NCBI GenBank assembly: GCA_001661245.1
Contig: KV454016.1
Coordinates: 928,268-992,267, forward strand
Reading direction: 5' to 3'
Length of the DNA: 64,000 nucleotides
Source: Pachysolen tannophilus NRRL Y-2460
Lineage: Eukaryota
Shown here: piece by piece, positions 4,260 to 63,452 of the stretch
Layout of the letters: the number at the start of each line of letters is the position of its first letter
How positions within the stretch are numbered: position 1 is the stretch's first letter
The notes under the pieces: generated by a model
The model's database searches: none
What the model was told of the DNA's origin: nothing
What the model saw: only the letters and a program-made list of their open reading frames with translations
Program-made: the position numbers and the translations under genes

Positions 4260-5042
4260 ATGTTTTTATTTGCTTTTGGTGTAGCAGTTCTAATAGTGAG
4301 TGAAGTATGGGCTTATCCAATTAACAACAATATCACTTCTGATGTTATTACAATTAGTAAAAATGACAATATTTTCAATTATAATGGTTTTACGTATATT
4401 CAAGAAACAAATGAGGTTTGCGGCAAAGAGACATTTCTGTTTAATATTTCCGAACTAATTGATAAAGAGTCATTGCTATCTGCTTTAGGTAATGAAACAT
4501 TTATGGAAGCAGACGCAGATTTTTTATCGAGCATAGATACCAAGTATTGTGTAAGGCTTTTGAATAAACCTCAAAAAATTGTGAAAACAGACTTGAGTGC
4601 ACCAATTAGTTTATGTTTAAATTCAGAATTTGGCGATGGTGGTTCTATTGGTAAGTCAGTTAGTGTTTCCGTTTCTGTGGGAGGAGATTTGAGTTTTTCT
4701 ATGCATGAGTCCGCAATGCAAGCAATCACAATGACCTGGTCGATTTCTGCTAGTATTTCAAAAGCTTTCAAACTAGTTTATTCTTGTACTGCACCTGCTG
4801 GTGAAGTGGCACAATTGTGGGCTACACCTGTTGGTGGTGAGGTTGATTTTGAAACAAGGAAATATTATCAACTAAGACATGGTGGGAAAAGGCATTTCGT
4901 TAGTGATTGGACCAAGGTGAAGAATTATCATTTCCCAGTAAACGAATTTTCTCCAAGACTTGCTTGTAAGAGTGGACCAGCCACAAATTGTGAGCTTCCT
5001 CAAACAACAAACTTTGTATTTAAAAATAGCATTGAGAATTAA
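4260..5042 (+). CDS. Secreted Cys-containing protein of unknown function (260 aa)
   Basis: N-terminal hydrophobic signal peptide ending VWA|YP, several N-glycosylation sequons, 6 Cys and an alternating Ser/hydrophobic stretch. Confidence 0.75.
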   Translation: MFLFAFGVAVLIVSEVWAYPINNNITSDVITISKNDNIFNYNGFTYIQETNEVCGKETFLFNISELIDKESLLSALGNETFMEADADFLSSIDTKYCVRLLNKPQKIVKTDLSAPISLCLNSEFGDGGSIGKSVSVSVSVGGDLSFSMHESAMQAITMTWSISASISKAFKLVYSCTAPAGEVAQLWATPVGGEVDFETRKYYQLRHGGKRHFVSDWTKVKNYHFPVNEFSPRLACKSGPATNCELPQTTNFVFKNSIEN

Positions 5043-5373
5043 ACAAAAATTTCGTTAAATTAATATTATTTTATCACTTTCTTTCTATTACATTTTTACA
5101 ATTTTCAATTTTCAATTTTTAATATTTTTTATTCTTGAGCTGATAACAATACTTATATAATATAATACATATATGAAACCTATGGAAAAATCACTTTTTC
5201 ACCAAAAAAAAAAAAAAAAGCAAAAAAAAAAGAAGCAAAAAAAGAAAAGAAAAGAAACCGAAGTTTATAATAGTAAGCAATATGTCCTTAGAGCTTCAAA
5301 AGAGAGTTTCTAGAGAGTTTCAAGGGCAACTATTAATTTATTTATATTTTTTTTATCATTAATTATACATGTT

Positions 5374-5859
5374 CTATGTCCTCTTATCCCTTCTTCCTTT
5401 CTTCTGTACTAGTTGGAACCCATCGTCATCAATTATTGGAGCATTTCTTGCCTGGTGATCATGATCATCATCAAGATCCATTTCAACATCATCATGGAGT
5501 GTTTGCTCTTCTTCATCTTCGGCACTCTCATCACTATCATCGGGATTTTCAGGATCCTCTTGTATCTGAACCTGATAATGTGAACTTTCTTTTTTCTTCT
5601 GTCTTTCAAGCCATTTAGCGTACATACCATCTACTGTTTCAAATTGGCCCTGTGAAATTTCTTTATAAATTTTTAAAATTAAAACTGCCAATGGTAACGC
5701 ACTATCATCTTCAACTTGAACGTCAAACTCATCTTGCATAGCATATAACATCGTCTCTTCTATCAACTGGACATCAACAATTTTTTGCTCAAACAACTCA
5801 ACCACTATGGCAGTGATCCAATCTCTCTTATCTGCAGATTGAGGTCCTCCCCATTGGTT
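5374..5859 (-). CDS. TSR2: TSR2 (Rps26 escortin / pre-rRNA processing), C-terminal 161 codons; N-terminus displaced by inversion
   Basis: The minus frame reads NQWGGPQSADKRDWITAIVVELF...AMQDEFDVQVEDDSA...IDDDGFQLVQKKGRR, i.e. the Tsr2 WGG domain and acidic tail. There is no proper start on this strand. Confidence 0.93.
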   Translation of the reverse strand, partial: NQWGGPQSADKRDWITAIVVELFEQKIVDVQLIEETMLYAMQDEFDVQVEDDSALPLAVLILKIYKEISQGQFETVDGMYAKWLERQKKKESSHYQVQIQEDPENPDDSDESAEDEEEQTLHDDVEMDLDDDHDHQARNAPIIDDDGFQLVQKKGRRDKRT

Positions 5860-5903
5860 ATCTGTTCTGAATTCTGAGTGGCTCTATCTTTTGAACCAGA
5901 CAT
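5860..5903 (-). CDS. CNA1: Displaced first 14 2/3 codons of calcineurin A (MSGSKDRATQNSEQ-AT)
   Basis: ATG at 5903. Joining to +6430 gives ...[14 protein letters not shown] in frame, resembling the recalled S. cerevisiae Cmp2 start (RNTEQINAAIKIIENK). Confidence 0.85.
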
Positions 5904-6209
5904 CCTTCACTAAATATCACACACTAGACGTTATGTTCGTTCTCTCTACTGAACATCAAAAAAAAAAAAAAAAAAAATAACACCAATAGCAACACTAACA
6001 CCAAGCAGATCAAGATAGAAGATATATACTTATCTATATCTATCTATATCTATCAATATACAGATTTATAATACCCAGATAAAAATAATTAATACCTGTT
6101 TTCTCGTTATCTTCACCTTCTCCTTCCTGTTATTGCTCCAGGGCTTATAAAATAGAGAAAGTCTGTTGAGTTTTCCACGCACGACAAATGTTTTTGTCCC
6201 ATTTTTCAG

Positions 6210-6220
6210 AAAATTTTTCA
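6210..6220. promoter_or_regulatory. RRPE element upstream of the TSR2 ATG
   Basis: AAAATTTTTCA (= TGAAAAATTTT) about 65 bp before ATG 6283, typical of ribosome-biogenesis genes. Confidence 0.6.
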
Positions 6221-6282
6221 CTTTTTATAATTCATGAGGTTGAAGATTAGTTGGATTATAAGTTGTTTGTTGTTGGTTCGTG

Positions 6283-6429
6283 ATGAGTTCTATTGATGTG
6301 ACTGAGTTTGTGGAAGCAGGTAAGGATCAGGTTTCGCTTTTTTTCTCTGATTTGAAGCAACAGTCCAAGTTTGAGCTTGGGGTTTCGATGTGCATTTACC
6401 AATGGGATGCTTTAGAAATTGCAGTTCAA
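6283..6429 (+). CDS. TSR2: Displaced N-terminal 49 codons of TSR2
   Basis: The + strand reads [49 protein letters not shown] and then TGA. FELGVSM..Y.WDAL..AV is the Tsr2 N-terminal motif that directly precedes NQWGG. Confidence 0.93.
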
Positions 6430-8203
6430 TGATAATGCTTTAAAAAAAATAAAAAATAAGCAAGCATTTGCATCAACTAGGGATTATTCGATTTTTGTTA
6501 CCGAAGATGGGGAAGAAGTGTCTACTAAAGAGCGAATTGTAAAGACTGTTCCACCTGTGGCATCTAAGAAACCTAGTGAAGAAGAAGTTTTTGATTCAAA
6601 AACAGGTTTACCTAGACATGAATTTTTAAAAGAGCATTTTATTCTTGAAGGAAGATTACAGGAAGATCATGTTGTTAGGATCTTAGATATGGCAAGAGAT
6701 GTTTTAGCTAAGGAACCGAATTTATTAGATGTTCCTTCACCTGTAACTATATGTGGTGATATTCATGGACAATATTATGATTTGATGAAATTATTTGAAG
6801 TTGGTGGACACCCAACTAATACTTCATATTTGTTCTTGGGAGATTATGTGGATAGGGGTTCATTTTCAATTGAATGTTTACTTTATCTTTATTCGTTGAA
6901 GTTAAATTATCCAAATACTTTTTGGATGTTAAGAGGAAATCATGAATGTAAACATCTTACTGATTATTTTACTTTCAAGATGGAATGTCTTCATAAGTAT
7001 TCGATGAAAACATATAAAGCTGCTTTAGGAAGTTTTAATGCATTGCCGTTGGCTGCGATAATGAATAATCAATTTTTCTGTGTTCATGGTGGAATATCAC
7101 CAGAATTGAAAAGTTTGGATGATGTTAGAAATTTGAATAGATTTAAAGAACCTCCAACAAGAGGTTTAATGTGTGATTTATTATGGGCAGATCCAATTGA
7201 ATCTTATGATGAAGATGACGTTGATTCATTATTTTTACCAAACTCCGTTAGAGGATGTTCTTATGCTTTTACATATAAGGCCTCTTGTTCTTTCTTACAA
7301 AGAACTGGATTGCTTTCGATAATAAGAGCCCACGAAGCTCAGGATGCTGGATATAGAATGTATAAAAGAACCAAGACAATGGGGTTCCCTTCGTTATTAA
7401 CAATGTTCTCTGCTCCAAATTATCTTGATAGTTATAACAACAAAGCAGCAGTGTTAATATACGAAAATAACGTTATGAATATAAGGCAATTTAACGCTTC
7501 CCCACATCCATATTGGCTTCCAAATTTTATGGATGTGTTTACTTGGTCTTTACCTTTTGTTGGTGAAAAAGTTGTGGATATGTTGGTATCTATATTGAAT
7601 ATCTGTACACAAAAAGAACTTGATGAAGAAACTCCTTTAGCAAAAGAACCAGCAAACTCATTTGATGAAATATCTGTTGAATCGAATATAAATTCCAATA
7701 ATAATGGAACTGCAACTACAACAACAGCTGGCACGGAAACTACAGGATCTGCAACAGGTAGTTTTGATTTGAGCAAATTTATACTGTCTACAGGTAATTC
7801 TTCAGCAACTTCATCACTGGGATCCCAAATTAAAGATTCTGATTCTCTTGAACTGAAAAGAAATGTATTACGTAATAAGATCATGGCTATTGGAAGAGTT
7901 AGTAGAATGTATCAATTATTAAGAGAAGAAAGTGAAAAAGTTGAAAAATTAAGATCTTTAAGTGGTGGAAGAGTTTTACCAAAGGGAGTATTATTAAGTG
8001 GCTCTGACGGATTATCAAAGAAAATATCATCGTTTGATGAAGCTAGAAAACAAGATTTGAAAAATGAAGCATTACCACCAACTAGGGAAACTATAGAAAG
8101 AGAAAAGCAAGAAATGGAAGATGAAATTAAAAGAAGAGTTGCTGAACGGGTTAAAAGGGATGAAGGTCTTCAAAAATTGGCAAGAAGATTGTCTGATCGT
8201 TGA
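6430..8203 (+). CDS. CNA1: Calcineurin catalytic A subunit (PP2B; CNA1/CMP2 orthologue), body of gene
   Basis: PPP motifs GDIHGQ, GDYVDRG and RGNHE, the SAPNYLD loop, CnB-binding [12 protein letters not shown], calmodulin-binding [15 protein letters not shown] and autoinhibitory [17 protein letters not shown]. The true start lies inside the inverted segment. Confidence 0.97.
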
Positions 8204-8528
8204 TACCAACTTGTTTCTTTCAGTTTAACAAACAGATACTCTCGATATATATAGTATATTTATATAAATTATTATTCTACCAATTATCAATTTTACTTTA
8301 CATTTAATTTATTCACTGATAATAACAGTTCAAAACTTTAACGATATAACATCGTCTTTTTATTTTTGTAATATTATCATCATCATCATCATCATCATCT
8401 TCGTAATTCGTCAAGTGTACTAATATCAGAGGTTGAAAAATTTCTCAGCACGACTTTACATTTTTGTAATATCAAGACTTTACCATCTAATTTGAAACTA
8501 ATTTGTGGACTGAGCAAGAAGGTTATCA

Positions 8529-9446
8529 ATGTCGAGGAGTTCTTCTAGACTTGTGCTTTCTAGGCCTTCAATTTCTAATACTGAAGTAATCTCTGGGAAT
8601 GAGAATTTGAGTTCAGTAGAGTTTTCTGTTGGGGAACATTCAATATTGTACGCTGGTCATGACGGTATAATGATAAAAGATGATCACCAAAGGAATTTCA
8701 GGAAATTAATTTCTACTTTCATATCAGAATCTAAGGAAGAAGATTTTAGTGATGCTGAATTATATGTGTTGAACACAAGTTTTATAATTTGGTTAAATGA
8801 ACTTGCGAAAGGAATAGAATTTCCGTATCAAAATTTGATATTACATGCTTTACAAAAGGACGACGTTGGCAAGACATGGTTATATTTACAAATATCTTCT
8901 GATACTAACCTTGATGATAATGAGGAGGGGGATCTAGGAAATACAATTGAGCTTTCATTAGCTATTTGTGGAGAGGAAAAAACTAGAGAAAGAACTAGCA
9001 ATCCATTGTTAGAACAGGTAAATTCCAATTATAGAGATAATAATAAAGTGCTTGAGAACATTTACGAATCATTGACTACTTGCACATCATTTCATCTTGA
9101 TCCTGATTCTGAAGATGAAGAACAACAACAAGCAGTTGGAGGGCCAATTTTCATACTGCCAGATCAAAATTCTCCTACAAATGACGATGACGATGGAGAT
9201 GAGGATAACGATAACGATGAAGTTGTGCTGACAACTAATGAGAATAAAAGTGAGGATGATTTGACTGATGCCAGAGTTAATCATACATATCAAGAAACGA
9301 ATGAACATGAAAGTGCTACACTGACAGTAGATGTTGATTTGGTTTCCAGTAGTGGTGCAAGAACAAGAAAGGAAACAGAAAAGAAAAGAGAAAGCGTAAC
9401 GAATGGAAACGGTAAAGCAACGAGAAAGATTAGAAAATTGGAGTGA
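8529..9446 (+). CDS. LOT5: Lot5 / pICln (Voldacs) family protein
   Basis: LYVLNTSFIIW...GIEFPYQNLILHAL...LYLQ motif and acidic tail. Adjacent to SPE1, as in S. cerevisiae (YKL183W/YKL184W). Confidence 0.85.
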   Translation: MSRSSSRLVLSRPSISNTEVISGNENLSSVEFSVGEHSILYAGHDGIMIKDDHQRNFRKLISTFISESKEEDFSDAELYVLNTSFIIWLNELAKGIEFPYQNLILHALQKDDVGKTWLYLQISSDTNLDDNEEGDLGNTIELSLAICGEEKTRERTSNPLLEQVNSNYRDNNKVLENIYESLTTCTSFHLDPDSEDEEQQQAVGGPIFILPDQNSPTNDDDDGDEDNDNDEVVLTTNENKSEDDLTDARVNHTYQETNEHESATLTVDVDLVSSSGARTRKETEKKRESVTNGNGKATRKIRKLE

Positions 9447-9805
9447 TCTCAGTAGAGATCTCAGCAGACAAACACTTTGAAACCGTTAAAAAACCTTTAT
9501 TTTTTATTTCTTTTCTCTTTTTTCTTTTTAATATATATTAATGTACTATTTTTATTATAAATCTAAAGAAACAAACAAACCATGAAAAGCAAAAAGCAAA
9601 AAGAATATCAAATAACACATCAGAAACATTTAGCAAAGCAAAAAATACTAAAACTTTTCCTCTCTAAACGTTGGCATAGATTAATCGCAAAGCAATAGTG
9701 AAATAAATCTAACCAAGAAAAGCAAAAACAAAAAAAAAAAAAGAAAAAGCAAACAGAATAAATCTATATAATTTTTAAAAAATTTTTTAAAACGGATGGG
9801 AAATA

Positions 9806-11467
9806 CTATTCGCTGCAAACATACTTGACACTAGCGGTCTGTGTAAAACCGTTAAATGAAGTAGAAGCCACTGAAGTATAGGCACCTATATTATCGAAAA
9901 ACATCCAATCACCGACATTGAGGAGATGTGATAAATAAGTTTTTTCACTGATACAATCCAAACCATCACAGGTTGGACCCCATATAGAAGCTGGATATCT
10001 TTTTGTAAGTGAATTTTCATATTCCTTGTAGTACAAAAATTCTCCATCTCTAGTTAAGATTCTTGCAACTGGTTTTTGATGATCATATAATATACAATTC
10101 AAGTTACCATATAAACCGTCATTAAGGTACAACATAACAGCTTTCTCGGTATTTTCCTTTTCATTTGTAATTCCTTGAAACTCTTCTTTAGGTTTTCCTG
10201 AAGCATCAGTACCTCTTCTAGCAATGATGTGACATGCTAGGGTAAAAGCTGATGAGACCATATACCTTCCAGGTTCTGCAATGATTTTCAAATTTGGATA
10301 TAAATTTTCTGGGAAATTTTCATCCAATGATTCATTTGCAACTGATGAAGATTCTTCAAAAGTTTCCAAAGTAAAACCTCCTCCAATATCCAAGATATTC
10401 ATATCAATACCCAAGTGCGATTTGGCATATACAAATAACTCTTTTGAGTCCTTGATTGCCTGACGAAGAGAGTCCAAGTCACTAAAACCAGATCCCACAT
10501 GGAAAGCTACACCAACTAAATTCAAATCCAAACTCTTGCATAATTTCATTAACTCGACTGAAGTTTCAAAATTTCTTGATCCAAACTTTATTGATAACGG
10601 ACATTGAGCCATTTGATCATTTGTAGCAATTCTTAATAATAATTTGCAATTAGGATGTAATTTTTTAATTTTATATAATTCGTCAAAATTATCAAAAGTG
10701 GTTAAATTGACATCAACTTGTTTACTATATCTAATAAAAGAATTTGATTTGCAAGGGTTTGCATAAACAATTTTTTCTGGAGATATACCCATTTTCAAAA
10801 TTTTATCAATTTCACCTTTTGAAGCACAATCAAAATTACATCCTAATTTATCCAATAAAGTTAAAACTTTTGAATCATTATTGCATTTAATTGCGTAAAA
10901 AGGTTGGACTCTTGGTAATTTTAATTTCCAATTTCTATAAAGTCTGACAACTTCACCTAAATCACAAACAAAAAATGAATCTTCTTCACCAGCCAAACAC
11001 TCATTAGGGTCAATTTCCATAATGTGATTCTTCAATTCTTCACCAACAGCTAATCTCGAACGTCTTTTTGAATTCTGATCAAATATTTCACCTGAACTAA
11101 AGTTAGCAAAAGCAGATGAGAAAGAAGTCTCATTATTGGCAATTCCAGAAGTAGAAGAAGCAGATGAATCTGACAACATCATTGTTCTAGCGATCAAGGA
11201 GTCCAGAGAAAAAGTGCTCAAATTGGAAGAGACTGGAGTTAATGGTTGTTGTTGCTGTGGTTGCTGTGGTTGCTGTGGCAGTTGCTGACTTTGATCCAGA
11301 CCCAATTCAAGCTCACAAGACTCAAACTTGTCTTCAGTTGTGTTATTAGCAGCACGCAAAACATTAAACGGAGCTTTTGAGGAACTAGAAGTTCCAATAA
11401 ATCTTGAAGAATGCATATTAGAAACAATTGATCTGTATTGACTTAAAATTGAACGATTAGTAAACAT
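9806..11467 (-). CDS. SPE1: Ornithine decarboxylase with about 95-aa N-terminal extension
   Basis: PFYAIKCN (PLP lysine), FDCASKGEI, FHVGSG, LDIGGGF, AEPGRY, WGPTCDGLD, GAYT. Confidence 0.97.
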   Translation of the reverse strand: MFTNRSILSQYRSIVSNMHSSRFIGTSSSSKAPFNVLRAANNTTEDKFESCELELGLDQSQQLPQQPQQPQQQQPLTPVSSNLSTFSLDSLIARTMMLSDSSASSTSGIANNETSFSSAFANFSSGEIFDQNSKRRSRLAVGEELKNHIMEIDPNECLAGEEDSFFVCDLGEVVRLYRNWKLKLPRVQPFYAIKCNNDSKVLTLLDKLGCNFDCASKGEIDKILKMGISPEKIVYANPCKSNSFIRYSKQVDVNLTTFDNFDELYKIKKLHPNCKLLLRIATNDQMAQCPLSIKFGSRNFETSVELMKLCKSLDLNLVGVAFHVGSGFSDLDSLRQAIKDSKELFVYAKSHLGIDMNILDIGGGFTLETFEESSSVANESLDENFPENLYPNLKIIAEPGRYMVSSAFTLACHIIARRGTDASGKPKEEFQGITNEKENTEKAVMLYLNDGLYGNLNCILYDHQKPVARILTRDGEFLYYKEYENSLTKRYPASIWGPTCDGLDCISEKTYLSHLLNVGDWMFFDNIGAYTSVASTSFNGFTQTASVKYVCSE

Positions 11468-11761
11468 TTATACCTTCTATCTTCAATTGTTGAAAAAGAT
11501 AAAAAGCAAAAATAAGAAGAAGAAAAAAAAAAACTAAACTATGATGTTCCGTTTTTCTTTCAAACTAATTAGTTGACAATAACTCCAACTTTTTAAGTCT
11601 CAATTCTTAAAATTCAAATGAAAAATAGAAAAAAGTTAACAAAACTTTCCCCGTTAAAATAAAAACACACACACTGTTTGGTATCAATTAAAATTCTCCA
11701 ACAAATCTCAGAAAATAGCTAGAATGTTGATGTCGATGATGGTGGCAATTGATCAATATCT

Positions 11762-11782
11762 TTAATCGAAATACAACTTCAT
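11762..11782 (-). promoter_or_regulatory. Candidate uORF (MKLYFD*) in the long SPE1 leader
   Basis: ATG AAG TTG TAT TTC GAT TAA on the minus strand, about 300 nt upstream of the SPE1 ATG and downstream of a TATAAA near 11960. Confidence 0.35.
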
Positions 11783-12016
11783 GCGGCAGCTCTCGTCTTA
11801 TAATTCCTTTCTTTACAATCAACTAAAAAAAATTTTTTTTTCTTTTTTTAATTCCTTCAATTCCAAAAGTATTTTGGATTCTTACTTTACTAAAGTCAAA
11901 TCTACTAATACTATCAGTTTCGAAACCTCAAAGATTATTTTAAAATCTGAATCAAGTATTTATAAAAGTATTTAAAGTAATACAAAATGTTAAAGTTTCA
12001 AATATATTTTTAGGAA

Positions 12017-12070
12017 CTCATCTGAATTTTTCACCCGGCAAGAAAAAAAAAATTTTTCATGAAAAATTTT
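12017..12070. promoter_or_regulatory. PAC core plus palindromic double RRPE upstream of SPE1
   Basis: CTCATC (GATGAG) at 12017-12022 and AAAATTTTTCATGAAAAATTTT at 12049-12070. Confidence 0.55.
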
Positions 12071-12596
12071 TTAGTGCAAAAATTTGTAGCAAACAAAATG
12101 TGAGCAATTGGATGGATATTTTACAAAGTAATGAGTAAAGAAAGAGTAAATGAGGTTGATTAGAAGTATATAATTTATGTTTTTCAAATCTATAGCAATT
12201 TTTTCAAACTGGTGTAGTTGACAGTTTTTTTCTTTTTGCTTTCTTTTAGTTGTCTTTTAAGTTGATGGACTAATAGATGAAAAAGTAATTTACTTTGTAG
12301 TATCTCTATTTTAAATGCGCAATAGCAAAACTTTATCTTTTGAGATGGTCAAAGTTGGTTTCCATTTCAAGTTATATGATTGTCTTTGCGTATTAATGTG
12401 ATTAACGCGAGTTAGCAATTGTAATATACCTTGAAAAAAAAAAGAAAGATTTCTCAAAAAACTCAAAAAAGAAAAATGCTTGCACCAAACTTGTTAATGT
12501 CAATGATGTGCTGAAAGTGGATATGCATGAGCTAATGAGGAACTTATCATACCGTACGATTTCATTCAAATCCAAATTACAAAGTGGGAAATCTTC

Positions 12597-12659
12597 AAAA
12601 TGTGTTACAAATGTTTGCATTGTAATGGAGAAGTCGAATTAAGTGAGGATTTCAAATGA
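12597..12659 (+). CDS. ASH1: Displaced C-terminus of Ash1 (KMCYKCLHCNGEVELSEDFK*)
   Basis: The + frame encodes the terminal Y-x-C-L-x-C-x-x-x-V-E motif that Ash1 proteins carry and that the minus-strand ORF lacks. It is followed by T-rich, 3'UTR-like sequence. Confidence 0.85.
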   Translation, partial: KMCYKCLHCNGEVELSEDFK

Positions 12660-13325
12660 TTCTCCAAAAGATTACATTTTGCCATTTCGTTTTTTTTTTC
12701 TATTTTTTCTTTATCCTTTTTATTATTTTTATTTCTATTATGAATAATGATGATGGGACTGTATTTAATTTAATTTTTGGATGGATTTTTTATTACAATA
12801 TTTTTTTTTTTAACTTTTTATTTTCATTTCATTTTAGTCCTTTTCTTTTTCCTTTTTTTTACTATTTATTTGTTTTAATCTTCATTTATTGATTTTTTTG
12901 TATTCTATATAATCAACTACACTAATAATTACCATAATATATAAATTACCATTTTAAAAACCCCATTCATTAAACAAGTTGAACAAGTTGAATAAGTTAT
13001 TTATCTAAGTTATCAAAAAATGCTTTACTATGCATTATCATGCATGCGGCTCCAAATATTCATTTAGATGGGCAAAATTTTACAAACATTTTAATAAGAT
13101 TAACGAAACATCATAGCCCCACCTTGGTCTTAAATATTGAGTTATTTAAAGGGTTCAGCTTTAGAGAAACTAGCCGAACAAACTTGGTAATAGTCATGGT
13201 CTCATGCAGAGAGATTGTAGGAGAGTGATTTGTAAGAGGAGGCCGTGATAAAGGTAGTAAAAGTGGTAAAAGTGGTAGAGGTGAGGGTGGGGGTCATAAT
13301 AATTACAAAGATGATGGTTTCACAG
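12597..13325. other. About 0.73-kb inverted segment carrying the ASH1 3' end (breakpoints approximate, +/- about 10 nt)
   Basis: Re-inversion joins ...DKDGS(NF) to (KM)CYKCLHCNGEVE in frame and places the T-rich 3' UTR behind the stop. Confidence 0.82.
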
Positions 13326-15134
13326 AAAATTTGATCCATCTTTATCCCATACTTTCACAGTGCCTCTACTTTTCATCAATGTCCATTCACCTTTCAGTGG
13401 AATTCTTAAACAATTTTCATTAAGACAATGGGCACCTGTTTTCTTATAACGTAAACCACAAGAGTTACACAATTGTCCAGCAGTTACTAACCATGAAGGT
13501 CTCCAACATGGAGAATGAATCGATTTACATGAGATACAAGATCTAATGTTTTGATGACGTGGTGATCTTGGGGATTTCTTTGGTCCTGAAATTGCTGATG
13601 TTGGCGAGGTAATTGTTGTTGTTGATCCATTTACCGCTCCTGTTGGCGAAGAGACAACAGAAGATGATACATTTATATTTAATGAAGGAGGTGAAAGTAT
13701 CTTTGTAGTTGGAGTTGCTAATGAAGTAGTGGAAGTTGTGGTCGTATGAACAAAGGTGCGTAATTGTGGTGGTTTTGGTTTAGTAGATGTACTATTTGTC
13801 TTTATTTTATCGTTATTCATATTTGAAATTACTTGCAAAGGCAAATCTGTAGTAGTTGATGATGACGATAAAATTGATGATAAATGGAGTAATTGACGTT
13901 TCTTATTTGCATCCAGTGTAATATTTTTACCTCCTTTAGTAACTTTATTTATATTATAAGATGGTATAATAACATTAGTACTTTCATCACCAGAATCATT
14001 ATTATTCACATAACTTGTAAATCCTTTTGCAAAAACATGATCGTATTGTTTTAAATTCAATTCCTTATTGTATAAATGTGTATTGTTATTCAACAATGTA
14101 ATATCTTTTAAATATCCCGATGATTGATAAGTATAATTATTTTCAAATGGAAAATTAATTAATGATGAAATTTTCATTTTATCTTTATTTCTTAATTTAT
14201 TATCAACATATTCTGTAAGTTTTGCCAGTCTTGTAGAATTTTTCAATTTATTTGAAATCGAATCTGTAAATTTTACTGAATTAATATTTTTAATTTCATT
14301 ATTCTTCAAATGTTTACAATATTCTTTAAAACTTGAATATGCTTGTGGATCTTCAGCTTTAATTAAAATTTCAATCCTTTGTTTCCATTCATCATGATAA
14401 CTTGTTTCACAATCACTATCACGGCGATTCAAATGACCTAACTCATTATGGTCAATAAAAGAATTAGAGAAAGAAGTATCCGGGTATAATTTAGACGAAT
14501 CTTTCAAAGGTATGCTTATTTCATTTTCAGTAAAAATTTGAGCAATTGGTGAACTCAAGACATTTTTTTCATTTGTAGCAGCATTAGTTGATTGAGGTAC
14601 AAATGATGAAGACAATGATGGTGCAACATAATTAGAATCTGATGGAACTGGTGTTATCAGTTTATTACTCTTCAAGGCCACAGGCGATGGAGAAAATGAT
14701 TTGGATCTATCTTCTATTAATATTGCAGATGATCTTAATGGCGATAACAATTTAAAATCAGAACCAATTATAAAGCTGGTATTATTTGAATTTGTTGGTA
14801 ATTCATAAGGTGGGGATGGTGGTGCTGTCCTTGCTCTTTTAAAGCTGCCAGTGGTATATGATACATTTCCATCTGCGTCCGAATCATCATCAACATCTAA
14901 ATCCAATCTTCTTTTTTTAGCAGTTAAAAAATCTTTAGCACTAAACATTATCTCTGAAGATGATTGATCTGGTGTATTCAATGCATTAGTAGAATCTACT
15001 GTCAAATTCATCCCTGGTCTTGGACAATATTTAGAAGTTTGTCTTGCTAAACGATCAGCAGGATCACTATGAGACCTAGCATGGTTATTATTACCGTTAC
15101 TGTTATCCAAATGGTTAATCGCAACAATATTCAT
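13320..15134 (-). CDS. ASH1: Ash1 GATA-type zinc-finger transcription factor (truncated as assembled)
   Basis: [18 protein letters not shown]...[21 protein letters not shown]...GEW is the Ash1 finger. It lies between SPE1 and MTR2, as YKL185W does in S. cerevisiae. Confidence 0.92.
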
Positions 15135-16396
15135 TATCTTTTCAAAATCTTTAATACCTCTCTCACAAATAACCTTTAAACTAATTTGGTCCTTATTTGC
15201 GTAGTAACTTGGGTAATCAATATGTCCCCAAAATAAACAAAGAAATTTAATAACGTTAAATTAAAACTTAAAAAAAAAAATAAAAAAAAAAGTTAAAACA
15301 CACACGCACAAAATTATTGTTATTGTTGTATGTAAGTATTAATTTTGTTCTTTGAAACCAGTAAATACCTTTTGCTTTTTTTGGTAACGAATGGAATAAA
15401 CAATTAATTGCAAATATTTGTATATAAATATATCAATATATATATGTATAAATATATATATATATATTTATATGTATATTTATATTTTCTTTTTTTCCTG
15501 TATACAAGGTATGTATGTATATATTAAAAATGATTTGATAATTTGATCTTATTGTTTAGGGAAAAGCAAATAAAAAGAAATTAATTTTAAAAGTATAGTT
15601 TCAAACTTTAAACAACCCTAATCTGGAAAAAAACAAAAAAAACAAAAAAAATAAAAAATGTTAAGTAGTACTAAACGAATGAATGACAATCAGAGTTGAG
15701 CAACAAAGAGATACGAAAAAAAAAGAGAGAGAATAGATAGATCAATAAATGAGGTTTTATCTTTTACTTATATAGGATATGTCAACACAAAGTTAGATCA
15801 GGAGGCAAGTCAATACAATAAACCATCCTTCTCCATCTTTCACTTTTCTTAATTCATGGCAGAACTTTACCTGCTAGATGAAATGCATAGATTCAGTCGA
15901 ATCAAGGGCTGGACGCTGTACATTTACGGAAAAAGTTGAATAAACTATTATAAAAATTATACATCTTACCAATAAATAAGCAAGGTTACCCGTCTTTGGT
16001 TTCCCAAAACGGCACTGACCCAAAAGCAGGGCAGATCTAAAGTTTAAACTTAGTCCCCAAATCCAAATTAGGACGCATTGTTTTGCGCGCAATTTTTTTT
16101 TCTTTGTCAATAAAATTTGACCCAAAATGTGCGCATGTGTCCTGCTAATTGTGTGCTCTTGCAGCAACAGGCGTGTTTGTTTCCTTTGTTTGTGTTTTCT
16201 TAATTTTTTTCTTTTTTAATACTGTTGAAAAGATGCCCTGTCAAATAAAATTTCCAGTTAAAGAATAACAAGTGTAAATTTGATTCAATATACAAGAAAA
16301 AGACTATAATTAAAAAAAAAGATGATAATGATGATCATACTCTAGAGTACGTACCATATCATAAAACTAACAGATAACAAATTGCTATTTATCTTT

Positions 16397-16440
16397 CACA
16401 CACACACACACACACACACACTCTCTCTCTCTCTCTCTCT
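16397..16440. repeat. Compound microsatellite (CA)12(CT)10
   Basis: Read directly from the sequence. Confidence 0.95.
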
Positions 16441-16500
16441 ATTTTTGGCTTTGACTTTGGCTTTTTTTTAATATTTAAAGTTTGAACAGCCAAAGCCAAA

Positions 16501-16576
16501 CTTCCTAATTCGGAAACTATCTGTTTTTGTCAATTTTTGTCAATTTTTCCCACCTCTTCCTTACCGAATTAGGAAG
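16501..16576. promoter_or_regulatory. Pair of inverted Mcm1 (CArG/ECB-like) sites
   Basis: CTTCCTAATTCGGAAA (16501-16516) and TTACCGAATTAGGAAG (16561-16576). They share CTTCCTAATTCGG in opposite orientation and match TTACCnAATTnGGWAA. Confidence 0.65.
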
Positions 16577-16757
16577 GAGGCAAGAGAAGTCTTTCTTTGC
16601 AGACAATAATTCTTATGGAAAGGCTGGTACAAAATATTTAACAAATACTATTATTTTAATTTTGATTCAGATCAAGAGATCAAAACTGGAAAACCGTTAA
16701 CCCTGAAGAAGCGAGAGAAAAAAAAAGAAAGAAGAAGAACAATAGTAATTAATAATA

Positions 16758-17390
16758 ATGTCTGCAGCAAGTGATCCGAGTAAGTTTGAATCAAGTTTGA
16801 AAAGAAAAAAAAATTTTTCTTTTTTTTGTATAGTATAGTATAGTATAGTATACTAACATCACAATATAGCGAGTAACGTTGAACCATTTTTGAAAAAAAT
16901 TATATCGACTTTGGATAATCAATTCATAACGTCTCCGAGTCAGTACCAAAATAATGTGCAATTGTTTAAGGCATCGATCTTGCCTCAGTTGAAACAGCAG
17001 TCTGCTGTGATTATCAATGGGTCCCCATATGCTTCCAAGACGCAATTGCAAGAGATCTGGTCAAATTTACCAATATCACAACATCAACTAACATCTTATG
17101 ATACTCATCTTATACCTGGATCCGGTACATTTATCATTAGTTGTAGTTTAAAAGTGAGGTTTGATGAAAGTGGGAAGACAAGATTAGGTGAAAGTGCAGA
17201 ATTAGTACAGAATAATAGTCATACAGGTAATACAAATGTTCTGGTAGTAAAATTATGGAGTAGTTGGTACGGGGTGAATTTGAATTTAGTCGTTGATGAG
17301 ATAATAAGTAGTAACACAGATGTTGAATCGATTAATTCTTTTAATTATAGATTTACTTATAAGCCAGAAAATTCAATTATCAGTTTATAG
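16758..17390 (+). CDS. MTR2: mRNA export factor Mtr2 (180 aa); exons 16758-16779 and 16870-17390
   Basis: Intron 16780-16869 (GTAAGT...TACTAAC 16851...TAG) gives MSAASDPTSNVEPFLKKIISTLD. NTF2-like motifs HQLTSYDTHLIPG, KVRFDESG and SFNYRFTYKP. Confidence 0.92.
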
Positions 17391-29431: not shown

Positions 29432-31807
29432 TTAATTGTGTAAACGTTTTTCATAGGAGTACAAATTATGAACACCACCTTCGAATTGAGCAGAAGGAGT
29501 TCTGAATTCAAATCTAATCTCTCCATTACCAACACTTTCTCTTAAATCGTCTAAAGATCTAACACCAATATCTTGACAAGAATGTTGTAAACCATTGTAA
29601 AGATAAGGAATGAATTTTGTGATTGAACCTTTATCAATAACTGATCCAGAGACACCTTGAGCCACAAGAACTTTATCACCTTCAGAAAAATATCTTGAAG
29701 TTGACGCATTAGCATTTGTTGAGGTTTGTTGCATTGCTTCAATAGAACCCATACCTCTATAAGTTTTCAATCTTTTACCCTCACTAAAGAAATATTCACC
29801 TGGAGATTCAGTAGTACCAGCAAGCATACCACCCATCATACATGTTGAAGCACCTAAAGCTAAAGCCTTAACCATGTGACCAATGTTTTGAATACCACCA
29901 TCAGCCATACATGGAACTCCAAATTTGGAAGCAAACTCACAAACGTTATAAACAGCAGTACCTTGAGGTCTACCACACGCCATAACTTCTTGGGTAATAC
30001 AAATAGAACCAGAACCCATACCAATTCTTAAACCATCGACACCTGCCTCAATCAATGATGCAGTTTGTTCTCTAGTAACAACATTACCACCAATAACTTG
30101 TAAATCTGGGAAGGTAGCCTTAATCCATTTAACAATCGAGATTTGGAAAATAGAATTACCCTGAGAAGAATCGACTACTACAACATCTAAACCAGCATCT
30201 ACTAATTTAATTAATCTTTCTTTATCTTGTTCAAGAGTACCAATAGCAGCACCACAAAGTAATTGTTTTGATTGGAAAGATTTTGAAGCATTTGGATAAT
30301 CAAAATTTTTTTGTAAATCTGTTCTTGATAATAAAGAAACAAGGTTACCTTGTTTATCAACAATTGGTAATTTACCCTTTTTAGATTTAGTTAAAATTTC
30401 ATTACCATTGGTCAAATCAATACCATGTTCAGCAGTGACAAGATCAGTGGTCATAACTTCCGAAACTTTGGATTCACTGTTGTCATGGAATTGAATATCT
30501 CTTGATGTGACAATACCAACCAATTTACCACCAATTTTACCAGTTTCTAAAACAATTATATATATGTTAGTAATCAATCAGCCAATTAATTTTTTTTTTT
30601 TTNTTTTTCGTTGGTAANNNNNNNNNNNNNNNNNNNNNNNNNNNNNNNNNNNNNNNNNNNNNNNNNNNNNNNNNNNNNNNNNNNNNNNNNNNNNNNNNNN
30701 NNNNNNNNNNNNNNNNNNNNNNNNNNNNNNNNNNNNNNNNNNNNNNNNNNNNNNNNNNNNNNNNNNNNNNNNNNNNNNNNNNNNNNNNNNNNNNNNNNNN
30801 NNNNNNNNNNNNNNNNNNNNNNNNNNNNNNNNNNNNNNNNNNNNNNNNNNNNNNNNNNNNNNNNNNNNNNNNNNNNNNNNNNNNNNNNNNNNNNNNNNNN
30901 NNNNNNNNNNNNNNNNNNNNNNNNNNNNNNNNNNNNNNNNNNNNNNNNNNNNNNNNNNNNNNNNNNNNNNNNNNNNNNNNNNNNNNNNNNNNNNNNNNNN
31001 NNNNNNNNNNNNNNNNNNNNNNNNNNNNNNNNNNNNNNNNNNNNNNNNNNNNNNNNNNNNNNNNNNNNNNNNNNNNNNNNNNNNNNNNNNNNNNNNNNNN
31101 NTTTTTTTTTTTTTTGGGGAAAAAAAAAAAAAAAAAAAAAAAAAGGAAAAAAGTTATCTCATCTCATGTTTCTTTGTCATATAAAATCAGTTAAAAAGTT
31201 TCTCCACAAGATCGTTTGATCGCAATCGGTAGAACGAAAGTTATATATTTAAAAAAAATTGATCATCATTTCATAAACAACTAGAAACATGCAGATGACC
31301 AAAAGAAAAAAAAAAAAATTTTGTATTTTGAATTAACTTACCAGTCACTGGAAATGATGTAAACCCGAATTTTTGACCCATCAGTTTTACTTCCCCAACA
31401 GTTGCATCTGGACCAATGACAACAGGGTCATTAATAAACCCATTTTCATATTTTTTAACCTGTCTGACCATTTCTGCTTGTTCATCAGGAGTACAATTAT
31501 GATGAATAATACCGATACCACCCAACAATGCCATGTGGATGGCCATTGTTGATTCTGTAACAGTATCCATTGGTGAGGAAACAAATGGAGTTTTCAAAGT
31601 GATTTTCTTGGTCAATTTAGATTCCAAAGATACTTGCGAAGCAGGAAAATTAATCTTACCTGGTAATACCAAGAAATCATTGTATGTAAGACCACCTCTA
31701 GTCTTGGAGTCCATCAAACTCCTAACATCCAAACCATCTTTTTCCAGATATTCAGAAAGAAATTGGGTAGCCTTTGAGCAATTATTTGAATAATCCACTG
31801 GAGACAT
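29432..31807 (-). CDS. IMD4: IMP dehydrogenase (526 aa); exons 31807-31342 and 30546-29432
   Basis: Intron 31341-30547 (GTAAGT...TACTAAC...TAG) joins [15 protein letters not shown] in frame. Catalytic [12 protein letters not shown]. Hosts snR54, like S. cerevisiae IMD4. Confidence 0.96.
30618..31101. other. Assembly gap (484 N) inside the IMPDH intron
   Basis: Run of N flanked by homopolymers. Confidence 1.
31183..31273 (-). ncRNA. SNR54: Box C/D snoRNA snR54 orthologue (18S rRNA Am974 guide)
   Basis: Minus strand: box C ATGATGA (31269-31263), guide TAACTTTCGTTCT complementary to 18S AGAACGAAAGTTA, D' CCGA, then GATCAAACGATCTTGT and box D CTGA (31190-31187). Intronic location in IMPDH. Confidence 0.92.
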
Positions 31808-31926
31808 TGTTTGATACCACTAACTTAAGATTGAAAAAAAAAAAAAATTTTTAAAATAAAACTTTTTTTTTGGTCAAATTAAATAGAATTACGAAATCAG
31901 AATGAAAGTGAATTAAGCAACGTTAA

Positions 31927-42059: not shown

Positions 42060-44495
42060 CTAAACAAATCTACTTTTTTGGGACAACGGAGCAACAAGAT
42101 CTGTAGCCCTCTTGAGCATATTTTCAATTCTACCTTTCAAAACACCAGAACCACATTCTACAGTCAAATTAAAAATATCAACTTTTGCCTCATGTTTACC
42201 AATCTTTATAGTAGCAATATTCTGATTTTCACCATCATCTTCGTTATCGAACAAGCTCAAAGAATCACCGAATTGGGCACGTAATAATATTTTTATTCTT
42301 TTGATTCTTGTCTGTATTGAGGAATCTGCTAAAGATAATGGAAAGTCAAGCACTTGTAATAACTGACTGTCCTCCACTTCTTTTTTCACTATTCCATTTG
42401 TGGCAGTTTCTTCATCTTTAATTTTTGGTTCATCCTCAGACTCAGACTCCGCTTTCACATGGTTTTCTGTGTGGTCCAGTTTGTTATCATGTTCGTGTGC
42501 GTGATGACCACTACATTGTTTTGAAGATATTTTCACAGAAGCAGGTGAAGAATCAACACTTAATAAAATTGCAATAACCGAATCGGCAATTGTATCATTA
42601 ACCATACTACTCGTCCATTGTACTGTACATAAGTCAGTCTCTAGAGTAATGTTTATACAGTTCATGACTTCAATAGTAAATTCTTCTGGTTCGTCAATCT
42701 TAATATCGATAAAACCAAACATTTGGCTTAAATGCCAAAAAATCAAGTCTCTACCAGCGCAACATCTAATAGTCTGTCTTTCTTTAACAATACAGGTACT
42801 TAACCCTGAATATTCTCTCAAGTCTTCAATTTTTAATAAATTTAAATCAAAATTTTTCTGAACCAAGACACCCGAGATCAATTGCTTTTCCTTAATAGGA
42901 TCAATACTTTCCACTATTTGTCCCATTGCTTTTGCAATTTTAATACCTTTGAAAGAAAGTTTTAAATCATCACAGTTTCTTGGGTTATAAACTTTGACTT
43001 CGTTTTCCGTATTTTTTAATTTTTGATACTTTGATAGTAATGCCGATTTCAAACGACCCATTGGATTTGATTCACCATGAACCAATATAATTGATTTAGG
43101 GTTTACCAATTCGATAAATTTAGAATTTTGTTCATAGTCAACGTGAGCAGCAAAGGAAATTTCAGTAATACCCAGTCTTCTAGGTATCATTATATCTGGA
43201 TTATTGAATGACGGTATTTGGGCAGGCTCCATTAACAATTGTTTTGCCATTGTACCTTCAATAGAGTAACCAGTTAAAATCACAGCATTTCTTTCATCAG
43301 GGGCCCATCTTTCTAGCAATTCTCTTGAAACACCATTTTGTAACATACCAGGAGCTGCTAACACAATGCATGGATTTAAATCGTCAAATTTATCTAAATT
43401 TCTTATACTTTTAATATATTTAAATTGGAAAGGATTTGAATTTGAATCTCTAAATTTTTTTCTAATACTTTCATTCATCATATTTATATAAGTTTGATAA
43501 ACCGCCATACATTTTCTTGCTAAAGAAGATGCGTAATATATATTAATGTCCTCAAGATCTTCATTATTTTTCCAATACTCATCCAATATCAATAATAATT
43601 CTTGTGCTCTACCTAATGCAAATACTGGTAATAAGCATCTACCTCCTCTTAATAAAGTTGAATGTATTAAATTTGTAAATTTTGTTTCTTTTTCAATTCT
43701 ATTTTCATGAGTTGCAGTACCAAAAGTAGATTCAGTGATTAATATATCTGGTCTTGTTAATGGAACTTCAGCTATATTTAAATGTCTATCTTCTTCACGT
43801 GAATAATCTCCAGTGAATAATACTTTAATTCCACCAATTTCAATGAAAAACATTGCAGCACCCAATACATGACCTGCGTGATAAGCTGTGAATCTTATAC
43901 CATCAATTTCTACTGTAGAATGATAATCAATAGTTTCAATTTTATCAAATGATGCAGCCAAATCATCATCTGTATATAATGTCCCAGAATTCACAGTTCC
44001 GCTACTGTCATCACCAATCATAGTAACTCTAACAAAATCGTTTAATAACCATCTATAGATGGCTTTTGTAGGGTGAGTCATAAACACTCTTCCTTTGAAA
44101 TTTGTATGTTGCATAACAAACGGCAACGAAGCAGCATGATCCAAATGGAAATGACTAATCAAAAGTATATCCACTGTTGACAAATCAAATTCATCATAAA
44201 AAGGTAATGAAGATAATCCAGAATATCCTGGATGAACACCTGCATCCAACATAACCGTTTTCCCCTTGAATTGGATTATATGACAAGACCTCCCAACTTC
44301 ATTCCCTCCACCCAAACAAAAGAATCGAAACTGCTCTGTTTCACCAGACTGCTTTCAGGCAAAAAAAAAAAAAACACATAGTTCAATATTCAAGTTAGTA
44401 AATTCAATTCAATAAAAATAAATATATATATTTATATGAAAACCTCTTTTTAATTAAATACATACAGTACCATTGTCTGTTTTCTTACTTGACAT
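42060..44495 (-). CDS. YSH1: CPSF73 endoribonuclease Ysh1 (about 772 aa); exons 44495-44466 and 44348-42060
   Basis: [31 protein letters not shown]. Intron 44465-44349 GTATGT...TACTAAC...(AAG)CAG, phase 0. Confidence 0.95.
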
Positions 44496-44799
44496 GATTC
44501 GTAAAATATCAAACCTAACAGCAAGCAACAATCCACACAATCCACTTCTCTTCTAGATTAAGATATATAATTAAATATATTTCAATTTTATCAATATAAT
44601 TTTGACTGTTATTTGGTTTTTTTGAAGGTTTTTTTATTTATTTTTTTTATTTTTTTTTTTTGCTATATAATAATTATGAAAAATTACGACCAACAAATTT
44701 TTATCAAAAGTTGTTAATAAATAAATTGAAATTGGTTTTAATCAAATAATCATTGCATCGGGATAATCGAGGAGATTATATTGATAGAGATAATAGGAG

Positions 44800-45179
44800 A
44801 TGACGGAGAAGTCAGTTTACGAGCCGTTTAGTTTGATCAAGTTATCGTTGGATGAACAGGTGTATATTAAGTTGAGAGGTGCAAGAGAAATGGTTGGTAA
44901 ATTACTTGTAAGTATGAAATTATATTGAAATATGGAAGTTTTAAGGTTTTAATTGAATTAAGGAGTAAAGCAAAAAAATAGAAGAAGAAAAAAAAAGAGA
45001 GACTAACTTTGTTATTATAGGGTTATGATTCACATTGCAATATGGTATTGAGTGATGCTACAGAGACAATTTTTGTTGTAGATGAAGAAAATTCAGAGCC
45101 AAAGACAATAACTAAAAAATCAGAGACAATATTTATTAGAGGAGATTCTGTTATTCTTGTTAGTAATGCTCAGGATTAG
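44800..45179 (+). CDS. LSM3: Lsm3 (88 aa); exons 44800-44907 and 45021-45179; absent from ORF track
   Basis: MTEKSVYEPFSLIKLSLDEQVYIKLRGAREMVGKLL | GYDSHCNMVLSDATETI...IFIRGDSVILVS (Sm1/Sm2 motifs). Intron GTAAGT...GACTAAC...TAG. Confidence 0.95.
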
Positions 45180-61569: not shown

Positions 61570-62058
61570 CTACTAACCTCATTTAAAATATAATCATATA
61601 AATACTATTATTATGTATATTTAAGGGCGATTTATCTCTTCTTCTTTTTTAATATCAATTTTTCTCTTTTTCTCTTTTTCTCTCTTTCTTTTCTTAAAGG
61701 GCTTTTTGAACTTTTTTTTTATTTGAAAAAAAAAAAAAAATTTTTTAACTTTTTGTTACTATGGGTTTTTATGTAGCGAGCGGTATTATTCATTTTTTTC
61801 TTTCTTTCTTTTCTTTAATTTAATTTAATTAATTAATTTAATACTTTTATCTATTTTCTTTTTTCCTTTCTTTCTGGATAATTTTTTGGGTGTATGTTTA
61901 ATCATTATCGTCATTATTAGCATATATATTAATTACAAGTCAAAGTGTCTGCATCTGTTTTAAATAATATTGAAATTGAAACTTTCAAGTCCACTATTTT
62001 GAGGCCCACGACCCCAATCCCATTACTAAATTCATTATCATTTACAAATTCTAATCAA

Positions 62059-63452
62059 ATGAGAAAGTGTAAAGTATTTGTTGGTAATTCTCATCCTGAA
62101 TTGGGAAAATTGGTATGTGAGAGGTTAGGTATTGAACCTGCACCTTGTAGGTTGAAAAAATTTGCTAATGGGGAAACATCAGTTCAAATTGATGTTTCTG
62201 TGAGAGATGAAGATGTTTATATTATTCAAAGTAGTTCACCAGATATTAATGATCATATTATGGAACTTTTAATACTTATTAGTGCTTGTAAAGGTGGATC
62301 TGCTGCAAAAATTACAGCAGTAATTCCAATGTTTCCTTATTCTAAACAATCAAAAATGAAAAAACATAGAGGTGCTATAACTGCTAGAATGTTGGCAAAT
62401 TTATTAATTATGGCAGGGGCCGATCACGTGGTTTCGATGGATTTACATGCTTCTCAAATGCAAGGTTTTTTCTCAAAACCTGTTGATAATTTATATGGAG
62501 CACCAACTTTAGCAAAATGGTTGAAATTGAATTTACCAGATTATAAAAATGCAGTTGTTGTTTCTAAAAATCCAGGTGGAACAAAAAGAGTTACAGCTTT
62601 AGCAGATTCATTAAAGATAAATTTTGCTATGATTCATACTGATCGTAGAAGAGCAAAAGATGGTTATAAAATGAAAAAAATAGATTAAAATCTAATCAAC
62701 TGCAACAAAAAGTGGTGGTTGTAGATAATAAAGGAAGTTCAAAAACAGAAAATAGTGATGGTGAAGAAGAAGATGAAAATATTATTATAACAAATGAATT
62801 ACAAACTGCTAGAATTGTTAGAGGTCATGTTGTTGAAGATGATGATATCACTTTTGCTCCTTCACTGACTACATCTACAACTTCTTTAATTACTCATGGA
62901 ACTGATTCTGCATCAACATCAATTTCAGGAAATGGTATACATCCTTCAATACTGGGAAGAAAATTAAGTACAAATTTAAATGGTATTAGTTCAACAGATA
63001 TGTCAACTTTACATAATAGTAGCTCAAGTAATTTCCATGAATCAAATTCTGATGATGATGATGAACCAGATGTATTAGCTCAAGAAAAATTGATTACATT
63101 AGTTGGAGATGTTCAAAACAAACCAGCAATAATATTAGATGATATGGTTGATAAACCAACTTCTTTTATCTCTGCTGCAGAACATTTAAGATTAAACTGT
63201 GGTGCAAATGCAGTATATATCGTGGCTACTCATGGTGTATTTTCATCTGATTGTTTAGAGAGTTTGGAAAATTGTAAATTCATTGATAAAATTGTTGTTA
63301 CCAATACTTATCCTATTAGTAAAGAACAACGCGCAAAACTGAAAAAATTGGTTGTAATCGATGTTAGTCCAATTTTTGCAGAATGCATAAGAAGAGATCA
63401 TTTCGGAGAATCTATTAGTGTTTTGTTTAATTCATTAGCCGCCATTGAGTAA
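62059..63452 (+). CDS. PRS1: PRPP synthetase Prs1, interrupted by a 1-nt frameshift at about 62670-62686
   Basis: MRKCKVFVGNSHPELG...FAMIHTDRRR (to 62688) continues in the -1 frame through the NHR insert to LITLVGDV...IILDDMVD...AECIRRDHFGESISVLF. Near FAS1, as YKL181W/YKL182W are. Confidence 0.93.

Follow-up and report, generated by a model that had tools for sequence, protein, structure and literature searches.

In the 64-kb window (the whole stretch of Pachysolen tannophilus DNA that was analysed) the ASH1-like gene ends abruptly on the - strand, and a short reading frame resembling the end of an Ash1 protein, complete with a stop codon, lies about 0.73 kb away on the + strand. Two questions are raised by this locus: whether the + strand piece is the missing C-terminal end of ASH1, detached by inversion of a short segment, and whether such an inversion is a property of the organism or of its assembled sequence.

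ASH1 and its detached C-terminal end

The sequence and the coordinates of both pieces were confirmed (Table 1). The best database matches of the - strand ORF are proteins annotated as ASH1 or "DNA-binding transcription repressor ASH1," and 40 of the 374 candidates had E <= 0.001. The GATA domain of Pfam (PF00320) was recognized in this ORF with E 1.9e-6 (27.8 bits versus a cut-off of 26.8), and its CISC...CNSC residues align to invariant columns of the orthologues. The TGA stop codon (13322..13320) directly follows a CTG codon. The deposited ASH1 protein, P0001, comprises 604 aa and ends with ...DGSNFA; it is thus already truncated, and the short form of ASH1 belongs to the deposited record and is not peculiar to the window. 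Alanine is present in P0001 at all five CTG codons, indicating that the annotation of the source used the CUG-Ala nuclear code of Pachysolen-type yeasts (NCBI table 26).

The + strand piece, KMCYKCLHCNGEVELSEDFK, occupies positions 12597-12656 and is followed by a stop codon (12657-12659) and then by a T-rich tract, with runs of ten T at 12690-12699 and eleven T at 12801-12811. The region 12660..12950 is devoid of any ORF with a Pfam hit, and searches for tRNA genes and Rfam families in 5000-17000 found none.

Table 1. Position, strand and main characteristics of the features at the two inverted segments (window coordinates)
Feature	Position	Strand	Characteristics
ASH1-like ORF	13320..15134	-	604 aa and stop; GATA-type finger, CLNENC pair; ends with ...DGSNF-CTG-TGA
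Detached final 20 codons of ASH1, KMCYKCLHCNGEVELSEDFK, and TGA stop	12597..12659	+	
T-rich tract following the detached stop, regarded as the native 3' UTR of ASH1	12660..12950	+	approximate extent, inferred
Segment inverted relative to all orthologues	12597..13325		729 bp, nominal limits; flipping gives a 623-aa ORF
Left breakpoint zone	12531..12603		+ frame open from 12531; homology starts at about 12597
Right breakpoint zone	13322..13334		from the spurious stop (13320-13322) to conserved DKDGS codons (about 13334)
Other inverted segment	5860..6429		570 bp
Detached first 49 codons of TSR2	6283..6429	+	Pfam WGG profile positions 1-20, E 0.007
TSR2 body without start	5374..5859	-	161 codons and stop; Pfam WGG profile positions 21-78, E 2e-17
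Calcineurin A start (ATG and first 14 codons, plus 2 nt), detached	5860..5903	-	from in-silico flip
Calcineurin A body	6430..8203	+	Pfam Metallophos, E 7e-40

For comparison with other Ash1 proteins, a set of orthologues was formed from the 39 of 41 other database proteins that fit a simple finger pattern, P0040 and the 85-aa fragment P0042 being excluded. The first-pass annotation had stated that the E3 localisation element of S. cerevisiae ASH1 spans the stop codon and 3' UTR, which holds, and that Ash1 proteins carry an additional CxxC at the C terminus, and this is the case: in all 39 orthologues examined, the C-x4-C pair is followed by a terminal C-x2-C located a few residues before the stop. 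The typical tail reads ...YKCLHC(D/G/E)GEVEV..., with variants CLFCN..., CIACGWRVEV, and CLECG.... Relatives naturally lacking the terminal CxxC, which would have spoken for a native short form, were not found among the 39 orthologues, none of which comes from a close relative. In an alignment of 36 proteins (without P0009, P0033, P0040, P0041, and P0042) eight cysteines are invariant, comprising four of the finger, two of the CLNxxC pair and two of the terminal CxxC. Like other members of this family in Saccharomycotina, the P. tannophilus protein contains the GATA finger, the invariant PCWRPSW... core and the CLNxxC pair, and the YKCLHCxGEVE motif is found on the detached piece; unlike them, as assembled it has its last 20 codons, stop codon and 3' flank on the opposite strand, at a distance of 0.73 kb. 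Thus, CLNENC is present in the assembled polypeptide, while the terminal CxxC is absent from it.

From the C-terminal domains of the 39 orthologues an 89-position profile HMM was constructed, with which all 3017 six-frame fragments of the window of at least 12 aa were searched. Just two fragments scored below E 1: the - strand ORF, aligned with positions 2-68 at E 4e-35, and the + strand fragment 12531-12656, aligned with positions 71-88 at E 0.003. The third best fragment had E 1.3. In a BLASTP comparison with P0002, the closest orthologue (56% identical across the C-terminal region), 13 of 17 residues of the + strand piece were identical to the last 17 residues of that protein (485-501), with E 3e-9. 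The detached tail retains both invariant cysteines (C490 and C493 in P0002 numbering), and its stop codon is at the usual place.

Upon reverse-complementing the interval 12597-13325 in silico, a single ORF of 623 aa was obtained. Its match to the profile extends from position 2 to 88 of 89 with 134.3 bits, as compared to positions 2-68 and 117.5 bits as assembled, and the terminal CxxC becomes part of one Ash1 polypeptide. Taken together, the profile, BLASTP and flip results uphold the structural reading proposed in the first-pass annotation: relative to every orthologue, ASH1 is cut off by the assembled inversion from its terminal CxxC, its stop codon and its 3'-flanking tract.

The AlphaFold2 model of P0002, obtained with the 36-sequence alignment, is mostly disordered, except for a block of residues 411-500 with pLDDT of 89-98. 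Two terminal strands of this block, 483-489 and 496-499, bracket the terminal CxxC. The confident modelling of the entire block, including these strands, suggests that the tail and the finger would form one compact domain. The four cysteines additional to those of the finger may bind a second zinc ion, as their invariance in 36 sequences suggests. In a Foldseek search against PDB no solved structure covering the extension was found: there were 0 matches with E <= 0.001, the rows returned being weak ones to GATA fingers.

Breakpoints and the second inverted segment

The breakpoints of the ASH1 segment had been placed in the first-pass annotation at 12591-12603 and 13323-13334. These intervals are reasonable. 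The right-hand one is consistent with the limits set by the spurious stop and the DKDGS codons; the left-hand breakpoint is less constrained than was proposed, since the open + strand frame extends back to 12531. Across the nominal positions 12597/13325 there are 0 complementary bases. The same value, 0, was obtained for the breakpoint pair of the other inverted segment described below.

The numbering of this inversion as a "second" one implied the existence of a first, and it was found at 5860-6429, 6.2 kb from the ASH1 segment, where it affects the genes TSR2 and calcineurin A. The detached 49-residue piece of TSR2 is identical to residues 1-49 of the orthologue P0044 at 27 of 49 positions (E 2e-17). 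The deposited TSR2 model, P0043, corresponds exactly to the 161-aa body, with its first residue at the breakpoint. The positions of the WGG profile matched on the + and - strands are exactly consecutive, so that no residue is lost or gained at the TSR2 join, and flipping of the segment results in a protein of 210 aa, equal to the length of P0044, the best orthologue. On the other side of the segment, the frame of calcineurin A as assembled is open from 6416, and contains no in-frame ATG before 6689. After flipping an in-frame ATG is gained, and the protein comprises 605 aa.

In the assembled sequence, two base-perfect flips, one of 570 bp and one of 729 bp, thus disrupt three conserved genes within 8 kb. 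On flipping, each of the three coding junctions that can be tested (those of ASH1, TSR2, and calcineurin A) rejoins in frame, restoring uninterrupted genes for proteins of 623, 210, and 605 aa at base resolution, as expected for mis-oriented segments. Exact rejoining of the frames on flipping back would likewise be seen after a clean inversion with two breaks in vivo.

Repeats at the junctions were also analysed. Inverted matches within 40 nt of the joins are at most 7 nt long at the ASH1 segment, a length reached by 46% of 1976 random pairs, and at most 9 nt at the TSR2 segment, reached by 5.7% of random pairs (random mean 6.6). The 25 longest of the 277 inverted repeats of the window include none at the junctions. 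A 10-nt direct repeat, AATTACAAAG, is present at 12575-12584 and 13301-13310, near the joins of the ASH1 segment, and the 9-nt inverted match CCCATTGGT is located at 5850-5858 and 6398-6406, near those of the TSR2 segment. The occurrence of AATTACAAAG and CCCATTGGT is probably due to chance, given the different orientations of the repeats at the two flips and the frequency of a 9-mer among random pairs. A 5-bp inverted microhomology, TTATC/GATAA, considered for the 5860-6429 flip, was ruled out by the lack of complementary bases at its breakpoints.

In a search for further flips, six-frame translation of the intergenic regions gave 149 fragments with 38 aa or more (177 candidates with 35 aa or more), and these 149 were screened with Pfam. 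No third flipped exon was revealed in these 149 fragments by this screen, in which only pieces with a Pfam signal are visible; apart from the TSR2 piece, there were only weak hits with E 0.002-0.05, below the cut-offs. Two other genes without an evident start, MTR2 (16760-17387, + strand) and a CPSF73/YSH1-like gene (42063-44510, - strand), were considered as possible products of inversion, and in both cases a short first exon followed by a canonical intron was found instead. These introns have the structure GTAAGT or GTATGT ... TACTAAC ... AG.

Origin of the inverted arrangement

The 729-bp segment 12597-13325 is probably mis-oriented in the draft assembly, the inversion thus being an artefact. 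During construction of the draft scaffold this segment, and likewise the 570-bp segment 5860-6429, would have been set in the wrong orientation, possibly by a short contig or a gap-closing patch being joined backwards. The ASH1 gene of the organism would then most likely be intact, with 623 codons and with ...DGSNF followed at once by the terminal CxxC, the stop codon and the T-rich 3' UTR, the truncated 604-aa model being a consequence of the mis-orientation. The existence of a second base-perfect flip, other draft defects in the window, the absence of inverted repeats and the intact state of the tail are indirect evidence that makes mis-orientation the more likely explanation. The draft defects comprise the Ns in the IMP dehydrogenase gene and the split phosphoribosyl-pyrophosphate synthetase (ribose-phosphate pyrophosphokinase) gene, both described below. 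The detached ASH1 piece shows no sign of decay, as both of its cysteines and the stop codon are kept. A reading of the inversion as a highly interesting event in the organism is left unsupported, since the second flip, the draft defects, the lack of flanking inverted repeats and the intact tail point to mis-assembly.

Contig-level mis-assemblies of this class are counted by assembly evaluators as "inversions." As in other draft genomes, a short internal segment is reverse-complemented, gene models break at the joins, and draft defects are found nearby. Inversion mis-assemblies usually occur at repeats or beside gaps, whereas the joins at ASH1 and TSR2 have neither repeats nor Ns. A mis-oriented contig inside a scaffold normally leaves gaps, and the absence of Ns at all four junctions counts against an artefact. 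Moreover, two exact, balanced flips are an uncommon assembler error. The lack of Ns and of repeats at the joins and the unusual type of error thus weigh against an artefact.

The main alternative, which we consider unlikely, is a real and recent two-break inversion in the sequenced strain, resulting in an Ash1 without its last 19 residues, including the terminal CxxC and the native 3' UTR, and with its function lost or weakened. It may have been one of two clustered micro-inversions produced by a single local rearrangement; the more specific proposal that both flips are real and were produced jointly, in the culture that was sequenced, by one clustered break-and-rejoin or template-switching event appears rather improbable. 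A real inversion has in its favour that this is the arrangement in the deposited sequence, which the gene models P0001 (604 aa) and P0043 (161 aa) follow, and that the segments are not flanked by Ns. Blunt joins without microhomology fit end-joining, and the intact tail would fit a very recent event. ASH1 is not known to be essential. However, the pair of inversions would also put TSR2 out of action and deprive calcineurin A of its start. Since growth of Tsr2-deficient Saccharomyces cerevisiae is reported to be severely impaired, although the cells are still viable (PMC4161973), real inversions would be costly. Two gene-breaking micro-inversions within 8 kb of a genome of about 12 Mb are very unlikely to occur by chance unless hundreds of them exist, which is more than a viable strain could carry, and the other assembly defects in the same window also speak against a real event. 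It is highly improbable that the two segments are parts of a programmed, reversible switch controlling whether ASH1, TSR2, and calcineurin A are on or off, an idea that rests on analogy. Some related yeasts switch mating type by inversion, and in the flip-flop mating-type loci of methylotrophic yeasts, as in bacterial invertons, the orientation of a segment decides whether a gene is whole, as it does here. Known invertible switches need flanking inverted repeats. A link to such systems could be seen in the reported role of ASH1 in regulating the switching of mating type in S. cerevisiae (PMC2169461). Unlike the segments of these switches, neither of the two is flanked by inverted repeats, the 7- and 9-nt matches being within the random range, which makes a programmed switch unlikely, and the Pfam hits of 40 long ORFs and 149 intergenic fragments of the window include no recombinase gene. 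The flip-flop regions of yeasts are also far larger than the 729-bp segment, and the "off" state would break housekeeping genes, a broken TSR2 being costly. Finally, the Ash1 of this lineage could naturally end at DGSNF without any inversion, the + strand match being a chance ORF. Lineage-specific loss of the tail is conceivable at the sequence identity of the best available orthologue, but the constancy of the terminal CxxC and of the eight cysteines in the orthologues argues against it, and a chance ORF is at odds with the gap in E between the + strand fragment and the next one, with its identity to the C terminus of P0002 and with its stop at the same place as in that protein, making this explanation exceedingly improbable.

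Searches of databases and sequencing runs were performed with the same locus. In five runs from two studies, the share of sampled words of region 12200-13800 that was present was 0.86-0.88; these shares do not discriminate between the orientations, because the words are strand-blind and only about 4% of them span a junction. No RNA run was found among the listed runs holding 12200-13800. A database search for an independent ASH1 of the same species at near lengths returned the P0001 protein of the window itself (99%), with the next match at 56%, and two hits to shorter ASH1 proteins both belonged to other species. For TSR2, the only same-species entry was likewise P0043 of the window, the remaining matches being at 55% or less. 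A metagenome scan with a 35-base stretch beside the ASH1 junction gave 0 matches.

If the arrangement is indeed an artefact of assembly, the deposited models of ASH1 (604 aa), TSR2 (161 aa) and calcineurin A (without a start before 6689) are wrong. The yeast concerned is the reference for the CUG-Ala genetic code, and two flips in 64 kb suggest that many more could be present in the assembly, so that comparative studies would record truncations and "gene losses" that do not exist. If, on the contrary, both flips were real, this would be a natural triple knock-out by clustered micro-inversions: a viable yeast with an Ash1 lacking half of its putative terminal zinc site and the native 3' UTR, a Tsr2 without its first 49 residues, and a calcineurin A without start codon. 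Such a case would be of moderate interest for the mechanisms of rearrangement and for life with a crippled Tsr2.

Other features of the window

The gene for IMP dehydrogenase (29435-31819, - strand) contains a single N at 30603 and a gap of 484 Ns at 30618-31101, flanked by runs of T13, T14, and A25. The presence of this gap indicates that the window originates from a gapped draft scaffold. In a published table, the sole P. tannophilus assembly is listed at scaffold level with a contig N50 in the 10^4 bin, an entry that does not necessarily correspond to the record of the window (PMC13232491); this listing, too, speaks for an artefact. Closure of gaps at homopolymers was considered as a cause of the two flips, and found to be unsupported, as the 75 runs of at least 9 nt are spread over the whole window.

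The ribose-phosphate pyrophosphokinase gene (61933-63449, + strand) is split into two frames overlapping at 62670-62685, at an A7 run. An unusual intron or a one-base frameshift, whether genuine or due to a sequencing error, could account for this split. A small + strand gene at 44800-45170, followed by GTAAGT, looks by eye like an Sm/LSm-type gene with an intron. The long intergenic region between ASH1 and MTR2 carries a microsatellite at 16398-16441, consisting of (CA)n followed by (CT)n.
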